DNA from: Blastocatellia bacterium
GTDB taxonomy: Bacteria > Acidobacteriota > Blastocatellia > Pyrinomonadales > Pyrinomonadaceae
Assembly: GCA_033858155.1 (NCBI GenBank)
Contig: JAWVCT010000043.1
Coordinates: forward strand, 6,351-70,350
Direction of reading: 5' to 3'
Length of the DNA stretch: 64,000 bases
Within the stretch, counting starts at the first letter, position 1. Each line of letters starts with the position of its first letter. A program made the position numbers and the translations under genes. Under the pieces are notes generated by a model. That model was not told the origin of the DNA. It saw nothing but the letters and a program-made list of their open reading frames with translations, and ran no database searches. Positions 33,393-45,337 of the stretch are shown one piece after another.

Positions 33393-34280
33393 CTAGTCGC
33401 GAGCAGCAAAGACTAACTGATCGAATTCGGGATCGCTGCGCAGGGCATTAAGGTCCTGATCGCGTTGAGCACGGATTCGCAATGAAGGTTGGAGGCCCAG
33501 GGCGCGCCCCAAAGCTTTGAGCGCAGTATCGATCGCCCCCAGACGCGCTCGGCTCGCCGCCAGACCGTAATGGATGTGAGCAGCTTCGGGTTCGCGTCTG
33601 AGTGCGCGCTCAAAGAGTTCCTGCGCCGCGACATACTCGCCCCGATTCAACTCAATTACACCTCGATCGTAAAGTGAATCCGCGTCCCTGGGTAACGCGA
33701 GCTCAGTGCGCAAACGTGTCTCGGCGACGGCAAGATAAGTACGCGCCCGAGCGGTAACTTCAGCAACCGTAGAATGTTTTTCAACTAAAGAGCGAAACTG
33801 GTTCCGCGCCTCGGCAAAATGACCGCGAGTAAATTCTTTGTGCGCCGCTTCGAAAGCGCGAAGGGCAGCGGCCTCGTCATGCGTGGGTTGCGGCGGCGGA
33901 GGCGCCGGCGCCTGCTTCTTGAATACCAGAGACCCTTTGGTCTGTCTCGGTTTGGCTTTGGTCTGCGTGGCCGCTTTCTTCCCATGGCTTACAGCAATTG
34001 GCCGGGTCGCCTTCGCCGACTTACTGGATTTGGTTAAGGTCTTCGCGACCTGTCTTTTCGCCGAGACTGGTGACTTGGGTTTTGGTTTGGAAGTGCGGAC
34101 CTTTGCCGCTTTCCGGGCCCGCGCCTTTCCCGCTGGCGAACGTTTGGTGGCCGGCTTCAGACGGGTTGTCTTAGCCGCGACCACACGCTTGCGAGATGAC
34201 GACACACCGGTTGAATGGCGCGACGAAGAGCGCGATGCAAGTTTTTTCACACTCTTGGCGATGGGACTGCTCATGCGCAA
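33393..34280 (-). CDS. Lys/Ala/Ser-rich (histone H1-like) N-terminal region fused to TPR-like repeats
   Basis: Residues 1-130 are K/A/S/T/P/R-rich (..KPKPKSPVSAKRQVAKTLTKSSKSAKA..). The C-terminal half is helical and TPR-like (LYDRGVIELNRGEYVAAQELFERALRREPE..). Confidence 0.7.
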   Translation of the reverse strand: MRMSSPIAKSVKKLASRSSSRHSTGVSSSRKRVVAAKTTRLKPATKRSPAGKARARKAAKVRTSKPKPKSPVSAKRQVAKTLTKSSKSAKATRPIAVSHGKKAATQTKAKPRQTKGSLVFKKQAPAPPPPQPTHDEAAALRAFEAAHKEFTRGHFAEARNQFRSLVEKHSTVAEVTARARTYLAVAETRLRTELALPRDADSLYDRGVIELNRGEYVAAQELFERALRREPEAAHIHYGLAASRARLGAIDTALKALGRALGLQPSLRIRAQRDQDLNALRSDPEFDQLVFAARD

Positions 34281-34652
34281 AGCCCTCGATTCATTGACGA
34301 TTCACCACAAAGATCGCCGCAAAAAACAAGGCGGAGCTTAACATAGCTGCCTATCTAATTCAACGAAAGAGTAGGGTTTGCGGCTATGTATCGGGGCTCT
34401 GTTCAACGGTTACAGTCAACGATGGCCGACGGATAACACTTGATGGCCTGTTAAGTGCCGTGTTAATGTGACTCGTGAGGTTTGGCGACCCGCGTTTTGA
34501 CTCGCCCAATTCGAAAATTTAGTAGGCACGCAAGGCCGGATGCCCACGCCTTATTTAATTTCTGCCTCAAGATTAGACCTTCTGGGGCTTCCCAAAACGG
34601 TATCAGCCCGCCCCCCTCGCTGTTTTCTTTCAAAATCCGGTCGAACCTTCTA

Positions 34653-35141
34653 ATGGCTAACGGTCCAATTCTAATTCGCGAACAGCGCTATCACCAGATC
34701 AAGGCGGTGCTGGCGCGCCTGCGGCTGGATTCCTCTGCCCGCCTGGTGGTTCTGGTCGACAAAGACGGGCAACAGATCGCGGTCCATGGGGAACTGGGAG
34801 AACTGGACACGACCAGCCTAGCCTCGTTGGCAGCGGGCAACGTCGCGGCCACCGGCGGCATGGCCAAGCTGATTGGGGAAAGAGAGTTCCCAACCCTCTC
34901 TCACGAGGGTGAGCGCGAGAGTATTCATATCAGCGTTATTGGCCGAGTCTTGTTAGTGGTAGTGTTTGACGACCGATCGAGCCTGGGCCTGGTTAAGCTT
35001 CGATCCAGGCAAATATCACACGAACTGGCAATGGCATTTTCCGAGATAGAACGTGAATCCGAGTTGGCGGCTGCGGATAATTCGCTCCCCTTCTCGGAAA
35101 TTACAGACGAGGAGATCGACAGCCTTTTTTCAAACCGGTAA
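34653..35141 (+). CDS. mglB: roadblock/LC7 protein, MglB-like GTPase-activating protein
   Basis: It sits directly upstream of mglA. The roadblock-like core is [18 protein letters not shown]...[16 protein letters not shown], with an acidic C-terminal tail. Confidence 0.8.
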
Positions 35142-35190
35142 GCGAACTGAAGCGCCCTTCAGCCGCTTCGATGACTATGGCCGAGCCCCT

Positions 35191-35775
35191 ATGACATTCA
35201 TTAACTACGCATCACGAGAGATAAACTGCAAGATCGTTTACTACGGACCCGGGCTTTGTGGCAAGACTACGAACCTTCAGCATATCTATGACTCGACGTC
35301 GGCGCAGGCCAGAGGCAAGTTAATCAGTTTGGCGACTGAGACCGATCGCACATTATTTTTCGACTTCATGCCGTTGGAATTGGGGACCGTGCGTGGCTTC
35401 AAGACCCGGTTTCATCTTTACACCGTCCCCGGGCAAGTTTTCTATGAAGCATCACGCAAGTTGATTCTCAAGGGCGTCGACGGTGTCGTTTTCGTCGCCG
35501 ACTCGCAGGAAGAGCGCATGGATGCCAATATCGAATCGCTCTACAATCTGGAAGAGAACCTGCGGGTTTATGGCTATGAACTGATGAAGCTTCCGTATGT
35601 TCTGCAACTGAACAAGCGGGATCTTCCCAACGTAATTCCAGCCACTGACTTGACGGCTGAACTGCAGAGGAAGGGCGAACCGGTGGTCGAGGCAGTAGCT
35701 TCGACGGGCGTCGGCGTGTTCGATACGCTGAAAGCCGTGGCTAAGCAGGTCTTAACCGAATTGCGTAGAAATTAA
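35191..35775 (+). CDS. mglA: Ras-like GTPase MglA
   Basis: [30 protein letters not shown] (P-loop), TVPGQVFY (MglA-type switch II) and LNKRD (G4). Confidence 0.92.
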
Positions 35776-40340: not shown

Positions 40341-40629
40341 AATAGCGCCGCCGATTATCGCGTAAGGAATTTTCAACCGCAATGTGCGGCTTGCCGCTCG
40401 ATGTGCGAAAAGCCTCGCGCTTTCCGAGAGCCCACTTAAATGAGCGGAGGCTATGCCTCGCTTCGAAGCGTAGCTTCACAGGGAATAGAGCCAGCCGGAA
40501 AGGCAAGTCCTTTCCGCACATCACGCGGCAAGCAGCATGCAACCTTCCTATTCTGCAAGCACTACTAAGCAAAACCATGACTTTCCGGCGCAGCCTTCTC
40601 GGCGTTATACTTTGCGGGCGAGCTAACGT

Positions 40630-41340
40630 ATGAAGCGAGAAAAGATTTCTGAGCTGACAACCAACCGCTTAAGCGTCTATCTGCGTTGCCTGAATGATCT
40701 GGCGGCTGCGGGAATCAAAACCGTCTCGTCTCAGGAACTCGCCGAACAATTCAATCTGAACTCAGCCCAAATCAGGAAAGACCTTGGCTATTTCGGCGAG
40801 TTCGGCGTGCGCGGAGTGGGTTACTTCATCGACGAGCTCCGAGAACATCTGACAAAGATCCTCGGGCTGGATAAGCCGCATCGCGTCGGCATCGTCGGAG
40901 CGGGACGACTGGGAACCGCGCTCGCCAACTATAACGGTCTCTCGAAATCAAACTTCGCAGTGGTAGCCTTGTTCGACAACGATCGGGAGAAAGTTGGCCA
41001 GCATGTCGGGCCCGATCAGATTCCGGTCTACGATGCGAAGAAAATTGCCAAGGTCGTTCGCGAAGAGGGAATCGACGTCTGCGTGATTGCCGTGCCCGCC
41101 CGCGTCGCTCAAAGAGTGCTGAATCAAATAATGGCTGCCGACGTAAAAGCAATTCTGAACTTTGCACCGGCAGCGCTGACTGCGCGACTGGGAGTGAAAG
41201 TTAAGACAGTTGATCTGACCACGTCGCTCGAGTCTCTGTCGTATTTTTTAGCGCGACCGCAGGCTGCTCGTTTGACTAAGGCTCAACGCAGGCCCAATAA
41301 ATTGGAAGAAATTGAAACCAGCGAAAGCACAAAGCTCTAG
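40630..41340 (+). CDS. rex: redox-sensing transcriptional repressor Rex
   Basis: The N-terminal winged helix reads RLSVYLRCLNDL..ISSQELAEQFNLNSAQIRKDLGYFGEFGVRGVGY. The Rossmann motif is VGIVGAGRLGTAL. Confidence 0.9.
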   Translation: MKREKISELTTNRLSVYLRCLNDLAAAGIKTVSSQELAEQFNLNSAQIRKDLGYFGEFGVRGVGYFIDELREHLTKILGLDKPHRVGIVGAGRLGTALANYNGLSKSNFAVVALFDNDREKVGQHVGPDQIPVYDAKKIAKVVREEGIDVCVIAVPARVAQRVLNQIMAADVKAILNFAPAALTARLGVKVKTVDLTTSLESLSYFLARPQAARLTKAQRRPNKLEEIETSESTKL

Positions 41341-41381
41341 CGGTTGCTGAAAACGCTTGTGCTATGCTCCGCCAAGGCAAT

Positions 41382-41455
41382 GCGATCCACGAACCCGCAC
41401 GAAATGACGCGAAATAAGAGCTGCGGTTCGAGTTTCGTGTGAGTTCGTGGATCGC
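41382..41455. repeat. inverted-pair repeat, TTTCGTGTGAGTTCGTGGATC family
   Basis: GCGATCCACGAACCCGCACGAAA (41382-404) matches TTTCGTGTGAGTTCGTGGATCGC (41433-455). It lies between rex and the aldolase gene. Confidence 0.8.
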
Positions 41456-41495
41456 TTTTCTGATGTCTTAATCTTAAAAAAAGAAAGACCGATAG

Positions 41496-42317
41496 TTGGA
41501 CGAACAAACCGCCAGACGCGACCTCCTACGCATTTGCCATTTGATGTACGAGCGCAGCTATGTCGTTTCATCCGACGGGAACGTAAGCGTGCGTCTGGAT
41601 GATGGTCGGATCCTGGCGACGCCGACAATGACTTGCAAGGGAAGGATGACGGATGACCTGATCGCGGTCACCGACATCGAAGGCCGGCAGTTGAATGACA
41701 GTCGCGCATCCAGCGAGCTGGCCATGCACCTTTTGATTTATCGCGAGCGGCCCGACGTGAAGGCAGTCTGTCACGCGCACCCGCCGCATGGGACCGCGTT
41801 TGCGGTTGCCGGTTTGGCGATCGACCAGCCGATACTATCTGAAGTGATCCTGACGCTGGGCTGTGTGCCGCTGGCCGAATACGGCACGCCTTCGACCGCG
41901 GAGTTGACCGACGCGATGCAACCTCTGGTCAAGCATCACAACGCTTTGCTGATGGCTAATCACGGAGCGGTCGCTTACGGAGCGGATCTGTGGCAAGCCT
42001 TCGATCGTCTCGAAACGCTCGAGCACACGGCGAAGATTGCGATTCTTTCGCGGATGCTCGGCGGTTCAAAGAATCTTTCGCCGGACGCGATCGAAAAACT
42101 AATCAATGTCCGCGAAGCCGCCGGTTATCTCGACGCAGGGGCCCGGTGCCAGGCTTGCGGTTACTTACATGAGACGACTCTGTCGTGCCCAACCGGTGAT
42201 CGTCCGGCGGCCCGCACGTATCCTTCATCGACTTCGAACGGGGCAGGGAAGGTATCCTTGACGCGCGAAGAGTTGGTGGAGCTTTTGTCTCAAGCAGCTC
42301 GCTTAAGAGAACCATAA
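41496..42317 (+). CDS. class II aldolase/adducin-family protein (fuculose-/rhamnulose-phosphate aldolase-like) with C-terminal extension
   Basis: It has SSDGNVSVR, ELAMHLLIY, VCHAHPPHGTAFA (metal His) and MANHGAVAYG. After about residue 212 comes a Pro/Ser-rich linker, then the amphipathic helix LTREELVELLSQAARL. TTG start. Confidence 0.88.
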   Translation: MDEQTARRDLLRICHLMYERSYVVSSDGNVSVRLDDGRILATPTMTCKGRMTDDLIAVTDIEGRQLNDSRASSELAMHLLIYRERPDVKAVCHAHPPHGTAFAVAGLAIDQPILSEVILTLGCVPLAEYGTPSTAELTDAMQPLVKHHNALLMANHGAVAYGADLWQAFDRLETLEHTAKIAILSRMLGGSKNLSPDAIEKLINVREAAGYLDAGARCQACGYLHETTLSCPTGDRPAARTYPSSTSNGAGKVSLTREELVELLSQAARLREP

Positions 42318-42401
42318 ATCGCCCGGCGCATAGTAACTCCGGCGGACTTGTCCTATTCTAGGTGCACTCGTGAATGCTGCTCGTCAGTTGGGAGCAAAAG
42401 A

Positions 42402-42833
42402 ATGAACAGTCTTGCTGTGTATCAGAACAAATTCGCTCCGAGTGGGTTCCAGGTATTTGAGCGCGCGATTGAAGAATCGCGTCGGAGAAATCAGAATTAT
42501 GTTTCGCTGGGGCACCTGCTCATTGCTTTGGATGCCGAGGACGGCGGTTCCTTTAGGAGTCATTTGAAGCGCTTGCGCGCTCTTCATAATCTCGAAGCAG
42601 ACCTAAAGCCCTTCGAAAACGGTATCGAGAAGATCATGGAGTCAATGCCGAAGCATGAAGGGGAGGGCGTCCGGATTGGGCCGGAAACGAAAAAGTTCCT
42701 AAGGAGAGCCCTAACGATCGCGCGAGCCAACCAGCGCGAAAAGATCGACGCGGCAGACCTTCTGTCAGCATTCTTACAGATGGCGCCTATCCCATATGTT
42801 CGTCCGGGACAGAGTGGGCTCTTTGATGCTTGA
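42402..42833 (+). CDS. stand-alone Clp N-terminal (Clp R) domain protein
   Basis: Two Clp_N repeats: FERAIEESRRRNQNYVSLGHLLIAL and FLRRALTIARANQREKIDAADLLSAFL. GGAGC precedes the ATG at 42402. There is no AAA+ module. Confidence 0.75.
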   Translation: MNSLAVYQNKFAPSGFQVFERAIEESRRRNQNYVSLGHLLIALDAEDGGSFRSHLKRLRALHNLEADLKPFENGIEKIMESMPKHEGEGVRIGPETKKFLRRALTIARANQREKIDAADLLSAFLQMAPIPYVRPGQSGLFDA

Positions 42834-42880
42834 GTTTGTTTACACGATTTACTATCGGTCCAGAACACAGGAGAAACTGA

Positions 42881-43168
42881 ATGCAAGAAGCACTGGGAAT
42901 GGTTGAGACCAAAGGTCTCGTGGCAATGATTGAAGCGGCCGATGCCATGGTCAAGGCAGCTAACGTGACTTTGATCGGCTATGAAAAGATAGGCGCCGGC
43001 TTTGTGACCGCGATCGTCCGTGGCGATGTGGCGGCGGTCAAAGCAGCGACGGATGCCGGAGCCGCGGCTGCGCGAAGAGTCGGCGAATTGGTGAGCGTGC
43101 ACGTGATTCCGCGCCCGCATGGCAGCGTCGATGATGCGATGCCGATCACGGCCCAGAGCCGCGCATGA
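42881..43168 (+). CDS. BMC-H shell protein (PduA/EutM/CcmK-like hexamer)
   Basis: [80 protein letters not shown] is the near-canonical PduA pattern. SD AGGAG. Confidence 0.97.
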
Positions 43169-43449
43169 TCATCGCCCGCATCGTAGGCACGGTCGTGGCA
43201 TCACAGAAGGATCCGCGGCTGGAAGGCAAAAAGCTGCTCATTGTTCGCCCGGTCAATCTCGACGGCACGGACACGACCGGCTATGTCGTCGCGGTCGATA
43301 CGGTTGGGGCCGGCTTTCATGAGCGCGTTTTGGTCGTAGCCGGATCGAGTGCTCGCCTGGCGCAAAATATGAAAGACGCGCCCGTCGATGCCGCGGTCGT
43401 CGGGGTGATCGATACGGTGGATATCTCGCCTGAACTCGACGGGAGGTGA
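43165..43449 (+). CDS. BMC-P vertex protein (EutN/CcmL family), paralog 1
   Basis: [29 protein letters not shown]...[22 protein letters not shown]...DAAVVGVID. There is an ATGA overlap with the BMC-H stop. Confidence 0.93.
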
Positions 43450-43455
43450 GAGAAA

Positions 43456-43800
43456 ATGACCAATGAAGAAATCGGTCAAAGAATCGAATTCATCATCGAG
43501 CAGCAGGCGCAGTTTACTTCCGACATACAGATTCTGCGTGAGATACAAGCCGCCGATAATAAGCTGCTGAAAGAGCAATACCGGAATCTTTCGGATGCCG
43601 TGGTCGCCGTAGTAGGCATGGTCGGGAGGCTGGCCGAGGCACAAGAGCGGACTGATCGGCGAGTATCAGACTTAGCTGAGAAGGTCTCTGAACTGACTGA
43701 CGCGCAAGCCCGCACCGACGAGCGGCTAAATATTTTCATTAACGTGGTTGAGAAATATATCAGCCGCAACGGGAACAACGGCTCAACCAACTCATCGTAA
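43456..43800 (+). CDS. hypothetical coiled-coil protein (114 aa)
   Basis: Heptad-like helical sequence throughout (..LAEAQERTDRRVSDLAEKVSELTDAQARTDERLNIFINVVEKYI..). It starts 6 nt after BMC-P1 and ends 6 nt before BMC-P2. Confidence 0.65.
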   Translation: MTNEEIGQRIEFIIEQQAQFTSDIQILREIQAADNKLLKEQYRNLSDAVVAVVGMVGRLAEAQERTDRRVSDLAEKVSELTDAQARTDERLNIFINVVEKYISRNGNNGSTNSS

Positions 43801-43806
43801 GTCGTA

Positions 43807-44082
43807 ATGCAACTCGCTCGCGTCATCGGCACCGTCGTCGCAACAGTGAAGAATCCTTCCCTCGAAGGTCGCAAGCTGCTGATTGTCCAATCACTCGATA
43901 AAAATCTCTCGCCACAGGGCAAACCTTTAGTGGCCGTGGATGCTGCCGGAGCCGGCGTGGGTGAGTTGGTCTTCTGGTGCCGCGGCAAAGAAGCGAGCTT
44001 TCCGTTCAAGCGCGAAGACACCCCAACCGATTGCACGATTGTAGGGATTGTTGATTCGGACAAGCATGTCACCACTGTCTAG
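43807..44082 (+). CDS. BMC-P vertex protein (EutN/CcmL family), paralog 2
   Basis: MQLARVIGTVVATVKNPSLEGRKLLIVQ...AVDAAGAGVGELVFWCRG...DCTIVGIVD. Confidence 0.92.
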   Translation: MQLARVIGTVVATVKNPSLEGRKLLIVQSLDKNLSPQGKPLVAVDAAGAGVGELVFWCRGKEASFPFKREDTPTDCTIVGIVDSDKHVTTV

Positions 44083-44178
44083 CGCAAGATGTTATCTTGC
44101 GATGTGCTGCAAGACTCATCCTGCGATGTTTTCAGGTTTGTCAAAACGGAAAGGCCGCAAGTTAACAACTTGCGCTAC
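44083..44178. repeat. two CGCAAG..CTTGCG hairpins inside the shell operon
   Basis: CGCAAGAT-gtt-ATCTTGCG (44083-44101) and CGCAAGTT-aac-AACTTGCG (44156-44174). The 23-mer at 44156-44178 is identical to 21090-21112. Confidence 0.85.
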
Positions 44179-44183
44179 AGAAA

Positions 44184-44471
44184 ATGATTCTCGCCAAAGT
44201 CCTGGGAAACGTCGTCGCTACGCAGAAGAATGCGCGGTACGATAACGCGCGAATCATGTTGTGCGAACAGATCACTCCCGAAGGTGAGGCGACCGGCCAC
44301 ACGGTGATAGCACTGGATTCTGTCGACTCGGGAGTCGGCGATACTGTTCTAATCGTGCAGGAAGGTTGGGGCGCCTCGACCAGCGCAACCGGTAAAGTAG
44401 GCGCGGCCATCGACTCCGCTATCGTTGGCGTGGTCGATTACATCGATCTGCTGAAAGACGAGGCAAGTTGA
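44184..44471 (+). CDS. BMC-P vertex protein (EutN/CcmL family), paralog 3
   Basis: MILAKVLGNVVATQKNARYDNARIMLCEQ...ALDSVDSGVGDTVLIVQEG...DSAIVGVVD. Confidence 0.9.
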   Translation: MILAKVLGNVVATQKNARYDNARIMLCEQITPEGEATGHTVIALDSVDSGVGDTVLIVQEGWGASTSATGKVGAAIDSAIVGVVDYIDLLKDEAS

Positions 44472-44524
44472 CGGAACTGTTGAGGCTGAACTTTCACTCA
44501 GGCCCGGCTTACGCCCCCTTAGGA

Positions 44525-44603
44525 TTAGCACTTGTGCCAACCGGGCGGGACAAGTCCCGCCTCTAAACGAGTCGAGTTGGGACAAGTCCCGCGTGTCAAC
44601 GAG
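44525..44603. repeat. GGCGGGACAAGTCCCGCC-family repeat (copy 2, with extra half copy)
   Basis: TTAGCACTTGTGCCAACCGGGCGGGACAAGTCCCGCCTCTAAACGAGTCGAGTTGGGACAAGTCCCGCGTGTCAACGAG. Confidence 0.8.
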
Positions 44604-44615
44604 TAGTTAGGACTC

Positions 44616-45161
44616 ATGAGCACCGATCAAGATCAAGCAAGGTTAATTGCCGAACGCGTGGCGCGGCGGGTGAGCGGAACTCGCGGCAACGCGCCAGGCG
44701 GTGCAACGGCTCAATCAAAGAGCAGCCCACCGGCGCGAGAAGAATTGTCGGCGATCCGTGAAGGTCTGCACGATCTCGAGCACCAGCTTGATCGCATTGA
44801 ATCCAGGATCGGTCAACCGGCTAACCAATCTGAGCCAACGCGGGCGCGGCTGATCGATTTCGTGTCGTCGGGTCCGCCTTCAGCGGTCTCGCCGTCAATC
44901 ACCCAAACAACCGTTTCTCAAACACCTAAGGCGTCGCCACGAAGTTCCGGAGAGTCTTCGCAGTTTGTCCCGGCGACTCATTCGCCCTGGGTGCGAGACT
45001 TTAATCCTCCAACCGATCATCCCAGCCAGGAACGCTTCGGCATCGAAGAAGCGACCGTGTCGGAACTGGTGGAATTTTTCGAAAGCGAAAAAAAGTGTTC
45101 AGTCGAACCGGGCGGCAAGCCGTGCGATCATTGCGCCATGTGCAGCTCACGCGGATTTTAG
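44616..45161 (+). CDS. hypothetical disordered protein with N-terminal amphipathic helix and C-terminal four-Cys motif
   Basis: 181 aa. The N-terminus is DQARLIAERVARRV, a second helix is REELSAIREGLHDLEHQLDRIESRI, and a long Pro/Ser/Thr-rich stretch follows. The C-terminus is FGIEEATVSELVEFFESEKKCSVEPGGKPCDHCAMCSSRGF (C-x8-C-x2-C-x2-C). It is the last gene before the terminator. Confidence 0.6.
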   Translation: MSTDQDQARLIAERVARRVSGTRGNAPGGATAQSKSSPPAREELSAIREGLHDLEHQLDRIESRIGQPANQSEPTRARLIDFVSSGPPSAVSPSITQTTVSQTPKASPRSSGESSQFVPATHSPWVRDFNPPTDHPSQERFGIEEATVSELVEFFESEKKCSVEPGGKPCDHCAMCSSRGF

Positions 45162-45182
45162 TCGAGTTCAAAACGGACGAGG

Positions 45183-45217
45183 GCCGCTCTCTTTGATCGA
45201 GAGCGGCTTTTTCTTTC
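45183..45217 (+). terminator. intrinsic terminator of the BMC operon
   Basis: GCCGCTCTC-tttgatc-GAGAGCGGC, followed by TTTTTCTTTCT. Confidence 0.8.
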
Positions 45218-45245
45218 TCGAAGCCTAAATCTAAGCGGATTTTGA

Positions 45246-45337
45246 AAACGCAAAGGCCGCTAAGTTCTTCGCAAAGGAACGCAAACGAGTTGTCCTTAGC
45301 GTTCCTTTGCGGATTGTCTTTGCGACCTTTGCGTTAA
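45246..45337. repeat. nested palindromic repeat, CGCAAAGG/CCTTTGCG family (copy 2)
   Basis: Inner arms are GCAAAGGAACGC (45271-82) and GCGTTCCTTTGC (45299-310). Outer arms are AACGCAAAGGCCGCTAAG and CTTTGCGACCTTTGCGTTAAG. Confidence 0.8.

Follow-up and report, generated by a model that had tools for sequence, protein, structure and literature searches.

Locus Identity and Match to the BMC Catalogue

In the window, the whole 64,000-nucleotide stretch of DNA that was analysed, a block of nine genes, all on the + strand as originally predicted, very probably represents the main locus for a bacterial microcompartment (BMC) of the ACI type in a Pyrinomonadaceae/Blastocatellia acidobacterium. The ACI type comprises 125 loci, all of them acidobacterial and mainly from subdivisions 4 and 6. 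The catalogue that defines it, with Blastocatellia among the members, sets out its features one by one in its text and in Supplementary Data 2 (Sutter et al. 2021, Nat Commun 12:3809; PMC8217296). The ACI main locus encodes an aldolase (PF00596) that ends in a C-terminal encapsulation peptide (EP), a single canonical BMC-H, three BMC-P side by side and a hallmark protein of ~80 aa with an N-terminal EP and conserved cysteines at the C-terminus, whereas the EP-bearing aldehyde dehydrogenase (AldDH) is absent from it and "consistently" encoded on a satellite locus; the catalogue summary also counts among the main-locus genes one for a 2-hydroxyacid dehydrogenase and three for unknown proteins (PMC8217296). 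The locus in the window has the aldolase with its C-terminal EP, the single BMC-H, the BMC-P triplet, the Cys protein and no main-locus AldDH, and ACI membership is judged by these described features and not by the authors' HMM classifier. However, no 2-hydroxyacid dehydrogenase lies near the shell genes here or in any related locus, there is one conserved unknown protein instead of three, and the Cys protein, at 181 aa and with two helices, is a long version. Moreover, the operon begins with rex, and neither this regulator nor its Pfam domains are named in the text and supplements of the catalogue; two further genes, for a Clp_N-only protein and a coiled-coil protein, are inserted in the locus.

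The locus fits one more copy of the catalogued ACI type and is not new in kind. The BMC catalogue already lists the ACI architecture, though as one not characterised by experiment, so that the novelty which the original prediction claimed for a minimal organelle falls away, whereas its alternative of one half of a split locus agrees with the catalogued placement of the ACI AldDH on a satellite. The earlier statement that all gaps span 6–100 nt was too narrow, since the measured distances are 155 (rex–aldolase), 84, 47, −4, 6, 6, 101 and 144 nt. The window derives from a metagenome contig; proteins identical to those of the locus occur on a JGI soil contig, and NCBI assigns an identical protein to a Blastocatellia bacterium.

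The comparison first drawn with the Planctomycetes-Verrucomicrobia fucose/rhamnose BMC (PVM and PVM-like) was reasonable, both systems having a class II aldolase as signature enzyme and an aldehyde-generating step inside the shell, but among known types ACI lies nearer, and the PVM locus belongs to another taxon and itself carries AldDH, phosphotransacylase (PTAC) and acetate kinase. The HO main locus (Haliangium ochraceum, Myxococcota) has BMC-T proteins and AldDH, unlike the locus here, which has one BMC-H and no BMC-T. With HO and MIC3 the locus shares the BMC-P triplet, a related aldolase and the main/satellite split; the HO type I satellite has two BMC-P and an aldolase, and the ACI aldolase is "quite distinct" from that of PVM and has its nearest counterparts in HO and MIC3, with carbohydrate degradation as the proposed function (PMC8217296).

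Conserved Core and Shell Proteins

Aldolase peptide patterns matched 349 species genomes, and the loci of the best 80 of these, all from Pyrinomonadaceae, Blastocatellia or unclassified Acidobacteriota MAGs, were compared. Among these best 80 of 349, the order ruvA / rex–aldolase–BMC-H–P–P–P–Cys protein / ZIP / mraZ is kept wherever the contig extends, and synteny reaches beyond rex and the aldolase to span the whole queA-to-rsmH region. The conserved core is six genes (aldolase, BMC-H, three BMC-P and the Cys protein), plus rex. A sister clade has the core aldolase–H–P–P–P–Cys (86–89 aa) adjoining ruvA, without rex, the Clp_N gene or the coiled-coil ORF.

The BMC-H hexamer shell protein (42881..43168, +; 95 aa) matches PF00936 at E 9e-31, scores 140.9 bits with the NCBIfam EutM model (cut-off 133), contains the PRPH motif, and is 87–88% identical to the sister-clade BMC-H. 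The ATGA overlap by which its stop runs into the start of BMC-P1 is real. The three BMC-P proteins all match PF03319: BMC-P1 (43165..43449, +; 94 aa) at E 6e-30, BMC-P2 (43807..44082, +; 91 aa) at E 3e-31 and BMC-P3 (44184..44471, +; 95 aa) at E 2e-20. Each is much closer to its positional orthologue in the sister-clade loci L087 and L088 than to the other two BMC-P there (69–71% vs 32–38% identity for BMC-P1, 74–76% vs 34–41% for BMC-P2, and 70–73% vs 30–35% for BMC-P3), a pattern which marks the triplet as a set of ancient paralogues.

The Class II Aldolase and the Proposed Chemistry

The signature enzyme (41496..42317, +; 273 aa) belongs to the class II aldolase family, with PF00596 matched at E 2e-46 over residues 9–182, followed by a tail of 90 residues; its TTG start is backed by homologues of 272–273 aa that begin with MDEQTARRDL, and its identity is 79–97% over 80 species genomes (the best 80 of 349). 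The zinc and catalytic residues of the FucA type are intact, with E73, H92, H94 and H155 of FucA kept as E74, H93, H95 and H156, and the positions that we take to be the FucA phosphate-binding residues (G28, N29, T42–T44 and S72–S73) are invariant in the aldolase comparison, but conservation does not extend to Tyr113 of FucA. The best NCBIfam model is OtnC, 3-oxo-tetronate 4-phosphate decarboxylase (E 1e-41; 142.6 bits, below the cut-off of 250); therefore, together with the non-conserved Tyr113, the reaction is uncertain. Thus, the protein might be another enzyme of the class II aldolase fold, such as an OtnC-type decarboxylase, an epimerase or a dehydratase, in which case the chemistry of the organelle would depart from the fucose/rhamnose paradigm. 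Among PDB sequence matches, 6vop and 6voq, titled just "Aldolase" (7e-30), stand above FucA (1e-17 to 1e-19). Nevertheless, this alternative seems unlikely, as every score is far under the equivalog cut-offs, the superfamily-wide zinc and acid–base residues do not discriminate between reactions, and the catalogue groups the ACI aldolase with those of the HO and MIC3 BMCs.

The tail of the aldolase contains a Cys-x2-Cys-x3-His-x5-Cys motif (C218, C221, H225, C231; 42147..42188, +) that is unchanged in 10 homologues as well as in the aldolases of the sister-clade loci L087 and L088, and that presumably binds a metal. Past a Ser/Gly-rich linker, the C-terminus forms an EP-like amphipathic helix, KVSLTREELVELLSQAARL (42249..42305, +), which is kept across clades as TREEL(V/I)(E/D)LLSQAA and matches the catalogue's description of the ACI aldolase as bearing a C-terminal EP. 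Its hydrophobic moment is 0.46, compared with 0.47–0.76 for the EPs of Salmonella PduP, PduD and EutC.

Taking the enzyme as an aldolase, it would be targeted into a shell of BMC-H hexamers and BMC-P pentamers, where it could cleave a phosphorylated ketose into DHAP and a reactive aldehyde. An EP-tagged AldDH would then consume the aldehyde; in line with the catalogue's account of ACI, its gene would lie on a satellite locus.

The Cys-Rich Hallmark Protein

The last gene of the block (44616..45161, +) encodes the Cys-rich ACI hallmark protein of 181 aa, which has no match to a library family. In an alignment of 66 orthologues it begins with two EP-like helices, the amphipathic N-terminal one (~6–19) and a second (~41–66). 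A disordered linker then leads to a conserved C-terminal domain of 47 aa, in which four Cys are invariant (C-x8-C-x2-C-x2-C) and which closes with SSRGF. It is homologous to proteins of 80–90 aa placed last in the sister-clade loci, which fit the ~80-aa hallmark protein of the catalogue. An exhaustive HMMER search recovered 184 representatives of the Cys domain family, all 31–238 aa and none long enough for an enzyme fusion, and the domain is C-terminal in nearly all of the 150 listed of these 184. This Cys4 protein might act as a cargo/shell adaptor or as a carrier of a metal or redox cofactor. In other lineages, P–P–Cys modules stand alone, so that the shell genes are split there too and dispersal is therefore normal for the ACI type. 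The block is closed by a strong intrinsic terminator (45179..45221, +), present as predicted, with a stem-loop at 45179–45211 made of a 13-bp stem containing 7 G-C pairs and a 7-nt loop, and then a T run, TTTTTCTTTCT.

Core Enzymes Missing from the Locus

The absence of AldDH, Pta-type phosphotransacylase, alcohol dehydrogenase (ADH) and acetate kinase from the flanks, already pointed out in the original prediction, holds. None was found by Pfam searches of 20 larger ORFs in the upstream 36 kb or in the precomputed Pfam gene tables of the contig, which extend from about window position 34,000 across the locus and on to 74 kb, and tblastn with E. coli EutE, EutG, FucO, EutD, Pta, AckA, LdhA and SerA gave no match in the window. 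Likewise, 1.98 Mb from 172 related loci, taken with 10 kb either side, contained no EutE-like AldDH, Fe-ADH, EutD/Pta or AckA, as predicted by a core encoded on a satellite. These same negative results over 74 kb of contig and 1.98 Mb of related loci, and the compactness and strong conservation of the six-gene core, could also be read as a self-contained minimal organelle, whose shell would hold the aldolase and the Cys4 protein alone, with no AldDH or acyl-CoA branch in the whole genome. However, such an organelle seems very improbable, given that the catalogue puts the EP-bearing ACI AldDH consistently on a satellite locus, that the search of related genomes covered neighbourhoods of 10 kb either side, and that the shell genes themselves are split in other lineages.

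Inserted Genes

Three elements are lineage-specific insertions at intergenic hot spots: the Clp_N-only gene, which lies outside the core, the coiled-coil ORF, and the hairpin behind rex. The Clp_N-only gene (42402..42833, +) encodes a stand-alone Clp N-domain protein of 143 aa (PF02861, only E 4e-5); a start at 42348 was rejected, as homologues place the true start at 42402. Its AlphaFold (AF2) model, with a pLDDT of 76.6, matches the N-domains of ClpC1, ClpC and ClpA in Foldseek (E 3e-5, TM 0.55–0.6). As in other stand-alone Clp N-domain proteins, such as the C-terminal domain of M. tuberculosis ClpC2 (PDB 8ad9), the double-repeat Clp N-domain fold occurs without an AAA+ module, but sequence identity is only 13–24% and nothing here ties the protein to a Clp ATPase or protease. 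The gene was detected in 10 orthologous loci, all close relatives; elsewhere the slot between the aldolase and BMC-H is mostly 60–300 nt and empty, or holds TIR, WLM-like or other genes. The helical, coiled-coil-like ORF (43456..43800, +; 114 aa) is a variable accessory gene with no family match in Pfam and NCBIfam profile searches. It occupies the P1–P2 slot only in loci L001, L006, L009, L048, L057 and L160, and this gap is 3–208 nt in the remaining loci.

The original prediction took these two proteins to be dedicated scaffold or assembly factors of the organelle. Both genes are indeed co-oriented within the operon with short gaps, the coiled-coil ORF sits in the identical P1–P2 slot in lineages whose aldolases are merely ~82% identical, and the Clp_N family is 62–100% identical across more than 100 sequences. 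Nevertheless, both are missing from most orthologous loci, other species fill the slots with unrelated TIR, WLM-like, TonB_C and other coiled-coil genes, a Clp_N-only paralogue, 49% identical, lies outside any BMC context, and neither protein has a clear linker-separated EP, all of which makes a scaffold role decidedly unlikely. Thus, of the three proteins thought to be novel accessories, two are variable insertions and the third, the Cys-rich ORF, is the known ACI hallmark.

rex at the Head of the Operon

The first gene of the block is rex (40630..41340, +; 236 aa), encoding a redox-sensing repressor with Pfam domains PF06971 and PF02629, which exceeds the cut-offs of the NCBIfam models NF003995 (257 bits, cut-off 126), NF003993 (237 bits) and NF003992 (229.5 bits). 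In the best 80 of 349 genomes, rex lies immediately 5' of the aldolase in every Pyrinomonadaceae locus extending that far, and it is specific to this clade. The gap between the two genes is at most 30 nt, overlaps included, in 42 of 81 loci, so that in about half of species they are co-transcribed; gaps of −8 to +18 nt, likewise found in about half of species, leave no space for a separate promoter, and the BMC genes there must share that of rex. A candidate −10 box, TATACT (40606..40611, +), lies ~20 nt 5' of the rex ATG and recurs, as GCGTTATACT, GCTATACT or a close variant, at a constant distance from this ATG in nearly all of ~70 orthologous loci, which points to a promoter role. In the proposed scheme, rex would have been placed at the operon head in Pyrinomonadaceae and be co-transcribed with the BMC genes in many species. 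The typical targets of Rex are fermentation genes that reoxidise NADH, in keeping with an organelle linked to aldehydes and NAD, and the arrangement suggests that BMC expression may follow the NADH/NAD+ ratio. A literature search returned no earlier description of a BMC operon that starts with rex.

The NADH/NAD+ control originally proposed is in keeping with the conserved and often overlapping rex–aldolase pair; no canonical operator was found, and the sister clade lacks rex at this position. Acidobacteria are reportedly not among the taxa analysed in the 2012 Rex regulon study of Ravcheev and colleagues. The protein here passes curated Rex models but, unlike in the Rex regulons described (Ravcheev et al. 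2012, J Bacteriol 194:1145), a consensus search found no TTGTGAA-N6-TTCACAA operator near the operon, and none that recurs at a fixed place across 1.34 Mb of loci. It is a serious, if tentative, possibility that the proximity of rex says nothing about how the organelle is regulated and that a global regulator simply shares a conserved neighbourhood, and sometimes a transcript, with it, as the queA–rsmH region is syntenic as a whole, the sister clade carries the same core beside ruvA but no rex, rex is followed in the window by a hairpin with a U-tract, and TonB_C genes intervene between rex and the aldolase in other species. However, the −8 to +18 nt gaps would leave the BMC genes of about half of species on the rex promoter, and acidobacterial Rex may bind a variant operator missed by the consensus search, both in favour of a regulatory link.

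The repeat noted after rex is an inverted repeat with 26-nt arms (41379–41404 / 41433–41458; 88% complementary), forming a long hairpin followed by a UUUUCU tract (41379..41466, +) with a folding energy of −54.5 kcal/mol (z −4.5) and no Rfam match. The rex–aldolase spacer is 0–18 nt in about half of orthologous loci and of similar size to that in the window (145–265 nt) in about six close relatives, with the hairpin aligned in L004 and L005 only and the arm differences in L004 not compensatory. The hairpin is likely an inserted palindromic element and, with its U-tract, may partly terminate rex transcription. Other species carry TonB_C genes inserted in this same interval.

Organization of the Locus and Its Assignment to the ACI Type

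All nine co-oriented genes of the original prediction are present, all of them on the forward strand. The first is rex (40630-41340), which passes three curated NCBIfam Rex models and is followed by a gene with a TTG start for a class II aldolase-family protein (41496-42317), whose PF00596 match (E 2e-46) covers residues 9-182 and leaves a tail of 90 residues. Next come a 143-aa Clp_N-only protein with a weak Pfam Clp_N match (E 4e-5), whose true start was moved to 42402 on the basis of homologues; the bacterial microcompartment (BMC) shell gene BMC-H (42881-43168), overlapping BMC-P1 (43165-43449) by an ATGA; a helical, coiled-coil ORF of 114 aa without any family match (43456-43800); BMC-P2 (43807-44082); BMC-P3 (44184-44471); and a 181-aa Cys protein (44616-45161), whose central part is of low complexity and whose last 30 residues contain four cysteines. 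A terminator with a 13-bp stem (45179-45211) ends the gene block, and the repeat described earlier in the rex-aldolase spacer is a hairpin with 26-nt arms followed by UUUUCU. Intergenic gaps had been put at 6-100 nt and reach 144 and 155 nt. The locus is bordered on the left by queA, a BrkB-like gene and ruvBA, and on the right by a ZIP transporter gene and the dcw cluster through ftsZ. No known RNA element in the locus reaches the Rfam gathering score, and none is detected even with E relaxed to 1. The window proteins are found exactly on the JGI soil metagenome contig Ga0467050_0000051 (165.6 kb).

The locus had been considered a possible novelty; comparison with catalogued BMC types finds a match to the description of the acidobacterial (ACI) type. 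[quoted passage not shown] 2021, PMC8217296). In that source, the BMC-P tree gives a Blastocatellia MAG as ACI, and the supplement names locus-scoring HMMs such as HMMaldol_5_aci2. Judged by the described features, the window locus appears to be a further member of the ACI type. The likeness extends to the taxon, the aldolase with a predicted EP, BMC-H, the BMC-P triplet, the Cys protein and a locus devoid of AldDH. An identical protein at NCBI comes from 'Blastocatellia bacterium', and the best 80 of 349 related genomes are all Pyrinomonadaceae, Blastocatellia or unclassified Acidobacteriota MAGs; the aldolase carries a conserved terminal amphipathic helix after a Ser/Gly linker; BMC-H, which has the typical motifs, is accompanied by three BMC-P genes, here split by the 114-aa ORF that is absent from most relatives; and the 181-aa protein shares its position and Cys domain with proteins of 80-90 aa in the sister clade, with four invariant cysteines in the window protein versus three in the catalogue description.

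However, the window differs from the ACI description in lacking the hydroxyacid dehydrogenase and the other uncharacterised catalogue proteins. No 2-hydroxyacid dehydrogenase (PF00389/PF02826) was detected in the window by Pfam on the larger ORFs or in gene tables, and no extra conserved core gene that could correspond to the three-histidine protein lies between the aldolase and the Cys protein across related loci. In the Clp_N-like protein, which is encoded by a non-core gene, histidine H38 is invariant and H62 nearly so. A canonical ACI locus with the hydroxyacid dehydrogenase was sought by a metagenome scan with divergent Cys-domain proteins, and stand-alone P-P-Cys modules were found instead. 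A literature search found no paper on the experimental characterisation of ACI.

A Six-Gene Core with Variable Insertions

Two aldolase peptide patterns matched 349 GTDB species genomes, the best 80 of which were compared and show 79-97% aldolase identity; overall, metagenomic homologues of the aldolase number about 5,000, and at least 349 species genomes contain it. Searches with the window proteins (tblastn) revealed a single gene order wherever the contig reaches, namely queA-brkB-ruvB-ruvA, rex-aldolase-[slot]-BMC-H-P1-[slot]-P2-P3-Cys protein, ZIP and mraZ-rsmH. In a sister clade, which includes a MAG labelled Chloracidobacterium sp., ruvA is followed by aldolase-BMC-H-P-P-P-Cys protein (86-89 aa) and LemA, and its loci lack rex, the Clp_N gene and the coiled-coil ORF. 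The common order in the relatives, taken together with the reduced set of the sister clade, shows that the conserved unit consists of six genes: the aldolase, BMC-H, three BMC-P and the Cys protein. Compared with the sister clade, each BMC-P shows 69-76% identity to the orthologue at the same position versus 30-41% to the other two paralogues, which makes the triplet an old one.

Three genes had been described as having no assignable function; the third of them is the known ACI hallmark Cys protein, and the other two, the Clp_N-only gene and the coiled-coil ORF, are most probably incidental insertions, judging from their distribution. The AlphaFold model of the Clp_N-only protein (pLDDT 76.6) resembles the N-domain of ClpC1, ClpC and ClpA in full, double repeat included (Foldseek E 3e-5, TM 0.55-0.6). 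The gene was found in no more than 10 close relatives. Most loci have a spacer of 60-300 nt without a gene between aldolase and BMC-H, and elsewhere this slot is occupied by unrelated genes, including those for a TIR-domain protein and a protein with a WLM-like metalloprotease motif. The coiled-coil ORF occupies the P1-P2 slot in a few lineages only, other loci having a gap of 3-208 nt.

The two spacers flanking the aldolase act as insertion hot spots, where species differ in the gene inserted at the same position. The inserts encode TIR-domain, WLM/HExxH-motif, membrane-anchored TonB_C and long coiled-coil proteins and other orphans, and were seen in the aldolase-BMC-H slot (related loci L022, L023, L050, L053, L054, L061, L062, L065, L066 and L086) and in the rex-aldolase slot (within L033-L086). 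A Clp_N paralogue with 49% identity lies far from any BMC gene in another relative (L003, 10001-10429), beside a phosphoribosyltransferase gene and an ankyrin-repeat gene.

In other metagenomic lineages, BMC-P2, BMC-P3 and a Cys-domain protein of ~100 aa form a stand-alone three-gene module (loci L093, L095, L111, L113, L115, L121, L138-L144, L148, L156, L157, L159 and L165-L169), with no aldolase or BMC-H within ~9 kb in any of them. In the two of these loci examined in detail (L115 and L169), the module lies just downstream of a large ORF that resembles, by eye, a GAF/SpoIIE-type phosphatase, and a peroxiredoxin-like ORF is located further upstream.

The Aldolase and the Cys Protein

Residues E74, H93, H95 and H156 of the aldolase correspond to FucA Glu73, His92, His94 and His155, that is, the three histidine zinc ligands and the catalytic glutamate of the superfamily, and the phosphate-binding positions of FucA are also kept. 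FucA Tyr113 is not conserved, the closest PDB entries by sequence are 6vop and 6voq, both under the name 'Aldolase', with FucA ranking behind, and the best NCBIfam model, the OtnC decarboxylase, scores far below its cut-off, so that aldol cleavage is a putative activity. The tail contains an invariant C218-x2-C221-x3-H225-x5-C231 motif and ends in the Ser/Gly linker and the terminal amphipathic helix KVSLTREELVELLSQAARL; the Cys3His motif, linker and helix are all kept into the sister clade. The hydrophobic moment of this helix is similar to that of the EPs of Salmonella PduP, PduD and EutC.

Across 66 orthologues, the Cys protein has three common parts: an N-terminal helix (DQARLIAERVARRV), a variable linker, often with a second helix, and an invariant C-terminal domain, HPSQERFG..EA.V.ELV.FF..EK.C-x8-C-DH-C-x2-C-SSRGF. 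The 80-90-aa proteins of the sister clade have a single EP-like helix, which aligns with the internal helix of the window protein. An exhaustive HMMER search yielded 184 representatives of the Cys-domain family, all of 31-238 aa; the domain is C-terminal in nearly all of the 150 representatives listed, none of which is long enough for an enzyme fusion. The idea that the Cys4 domain equals the ~50-aa domain after the EP of the ACI AldDH is thus unsupported, the profile search having returned only these short proteins and no enzyme fusions. The AlphaFold model of the domain (pLDDT 62.5) is too uncertain for a fold search. In two members of 230-238 aa (P0495 and P0497), an additional central domain of ~120 aa separates the N-terminal helix from the Cys domain.

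Absence of Metabolosome Core Enzymes

The canonical metabolosome core, with AldDH (PF00171), phosphotransacylase (PTAC) and alcohol dehydrogenase (ADH) beside shell genes, is not found at the locus, as had been claimed for the operon and its flanks. Among 20 of the larger ORFs lying in the 36 kb upstream, Pfam detected neither AldDH, phosphotransacylase, ADH, acetate kinase nor 2-hydroxyacid dehydrogenase. These enzymes are likewise missing from precomputed Pfam tables that span the contig from about window position 34,000, across the locus, up to 74 kb, and the 10 kb further downstream of the window hold nothing BMC-related. Seeding tblastn with E. coli EutE, EutG, FucO, EutD, Pta, AckA, LdhA and SerA against the window and 171 related loci (1.98 Mb) gave only two SerA-like matches, both in unrelated places ~8 kb from P-P-Cys modules, while the positive controls EutM and EutN matched 98 and 134 loci, respectively. 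For PduL-type PTAC (PF06130), coverage comes from the Pfam scans and the precomputed gene tables of six loci.

Two interpretations had been offered: a minimal aldolase organelle or one half of a split locus. The regions covered, 10 kb on either side in the relatives and, of the 165.6-kb contig, 74 kb, contain no AldDH, which is consistent with a satellite location. In this BMC family it is normal for components to be scattered. Of the two interpretations, the split locus, of which this would be one half, is favoured by the evidence over the minimal organelle.

Pyrinomonadaceae, a major group among soil Acidobacteria, commonly have ACI microcompartments. Although no new organelle is revealed, the ACI picture is sharpened by telling the six-gene core apart from incidental neighbours and by identifying the family of hallmark Cys4 proteins, including its variants with two helices. 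The new details are modest: the core itself, a clade-specific rex fusion, the insertion hot spots, the Cys3His motif of the aldolase tail and the two-helix form of the Cys4 protein.

Rex and Its Possible Role in Operon Regulation

The rex product scores above curated cut-offs (NF003995, 257.4 versus 126; NF003993, 237.1 versus 217) and combines a winged-helix N-domain (PF06971) with a Rossmann domain (PF02629). In every Pyrinomonadaceae locus that extends far enough, the gene immediately precedes the aldolase. In 42 of 81 loci the gap is at most 30 nt, sometimes an overlap, so that rex and the aldolase must be transcribed together there. In the subclade of the window the gap is 145-265 nt; the spacer holds the hairpin in the window and in two relatives (L004 and L005), and inserted TonB_C or coiled-coil genes in other species. 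As a conserved RNA this hairpin was rejected, being missing from most relatives and having arm changes in L004 that are not compensatory.

A TATACT box (-10 box) is kept 20-30 nt upstream of the rex ATG in nearly all loci, and a de novo palindrome search upstream of rex recovered nothing conserved except this box. Matches to a Rex operator (TTGTGAA-N6-TTCACAA-like) are at chance level, with two distant matches at 3 mismatches in the window and 40 scattered matches without a consistent position in the 89 related loci (1.34 Mb); a site with 2 mismatches lies upstream of rex in L044 alone. The ACI catalogue text and supplements searched (PMC8217296) contain no mention of Rex or of its Pfam domains, and a literature search found no report of a rex-headed BMC operon. 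Redox control of the BMC operon by Rex is thus reasonable but hypothetical. Simple conserved synteny is a serious rival explanation of the same adjacency. For the timing of organelle production, the clade-specific rex fusion offers a hypothesis that can be tested.

Redox control by Rex can be taken further, to a Pyrinomonadaceae ACI organelle under a dedicated Rex switch. Its synthesis would follow NADH/NAD+ through a non-canonical operator, and the Cys3His motif of the aldolase tail and the Cys4 domain of the two-helix hallmark protein would act as a metal/redox module inside a very simple shell of one BMC-H and three BMC-P. This proposal seems unlikely as a whole; if it were true, expression of a microcompartment would for the first time be gated by a redox sensor and not by substrate.

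Many relatives (L004, L013-L015, L017, L019-L031, L034-L035, L038 and L089) have a conserved direct-repeat pair, GATTATCGCG(A/T)AA ... (C/T)AATCGCAAAT, ~22 nt apart and ~40-90 nt upstream of the rex -10 box, which could be the operator of some other regulator. The window is without this pair and has a palindromic insert there instead.

Intergenic Repeats and Neighbouring Genes

Beyond the post-rex hairpin, long inverted or direct repeats occupy the intergenic spacers of the operon at 40385-40537, 44080-44177, 44547-44604 and 45247-45335. They include an inverted repeat with 28-nt arms upstream of rex, two CGCAAG...CTTGCG hairpins in the P2-P3 spacer, a tandem GGGACAAGTCCCGC unit before the Cys gene and nested CGCAAAGG palindromes after the terminator, and similar GGGCAGGGACAAGCCCTGCCCC units occur upstream of rex in three relatives (L065, L080 and L086). 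These repeats look like a REP-like family of intergenic elements. In many relatives (L054, L060, L066, L071, L073-L075 and L078) the ruvA-rex spacer contains short tandem repeats of 6-8 nt, such as AATCCGC, CAAAGTA and GAAACYC units.

Upstream of the locus, a gene with a Roadblock/LC7 domain precedes one of 194 aa that has a faint Arf/small-GTPase match (34482-35775); the pair resembles MglB/MglA, and its position is kept in relatives.
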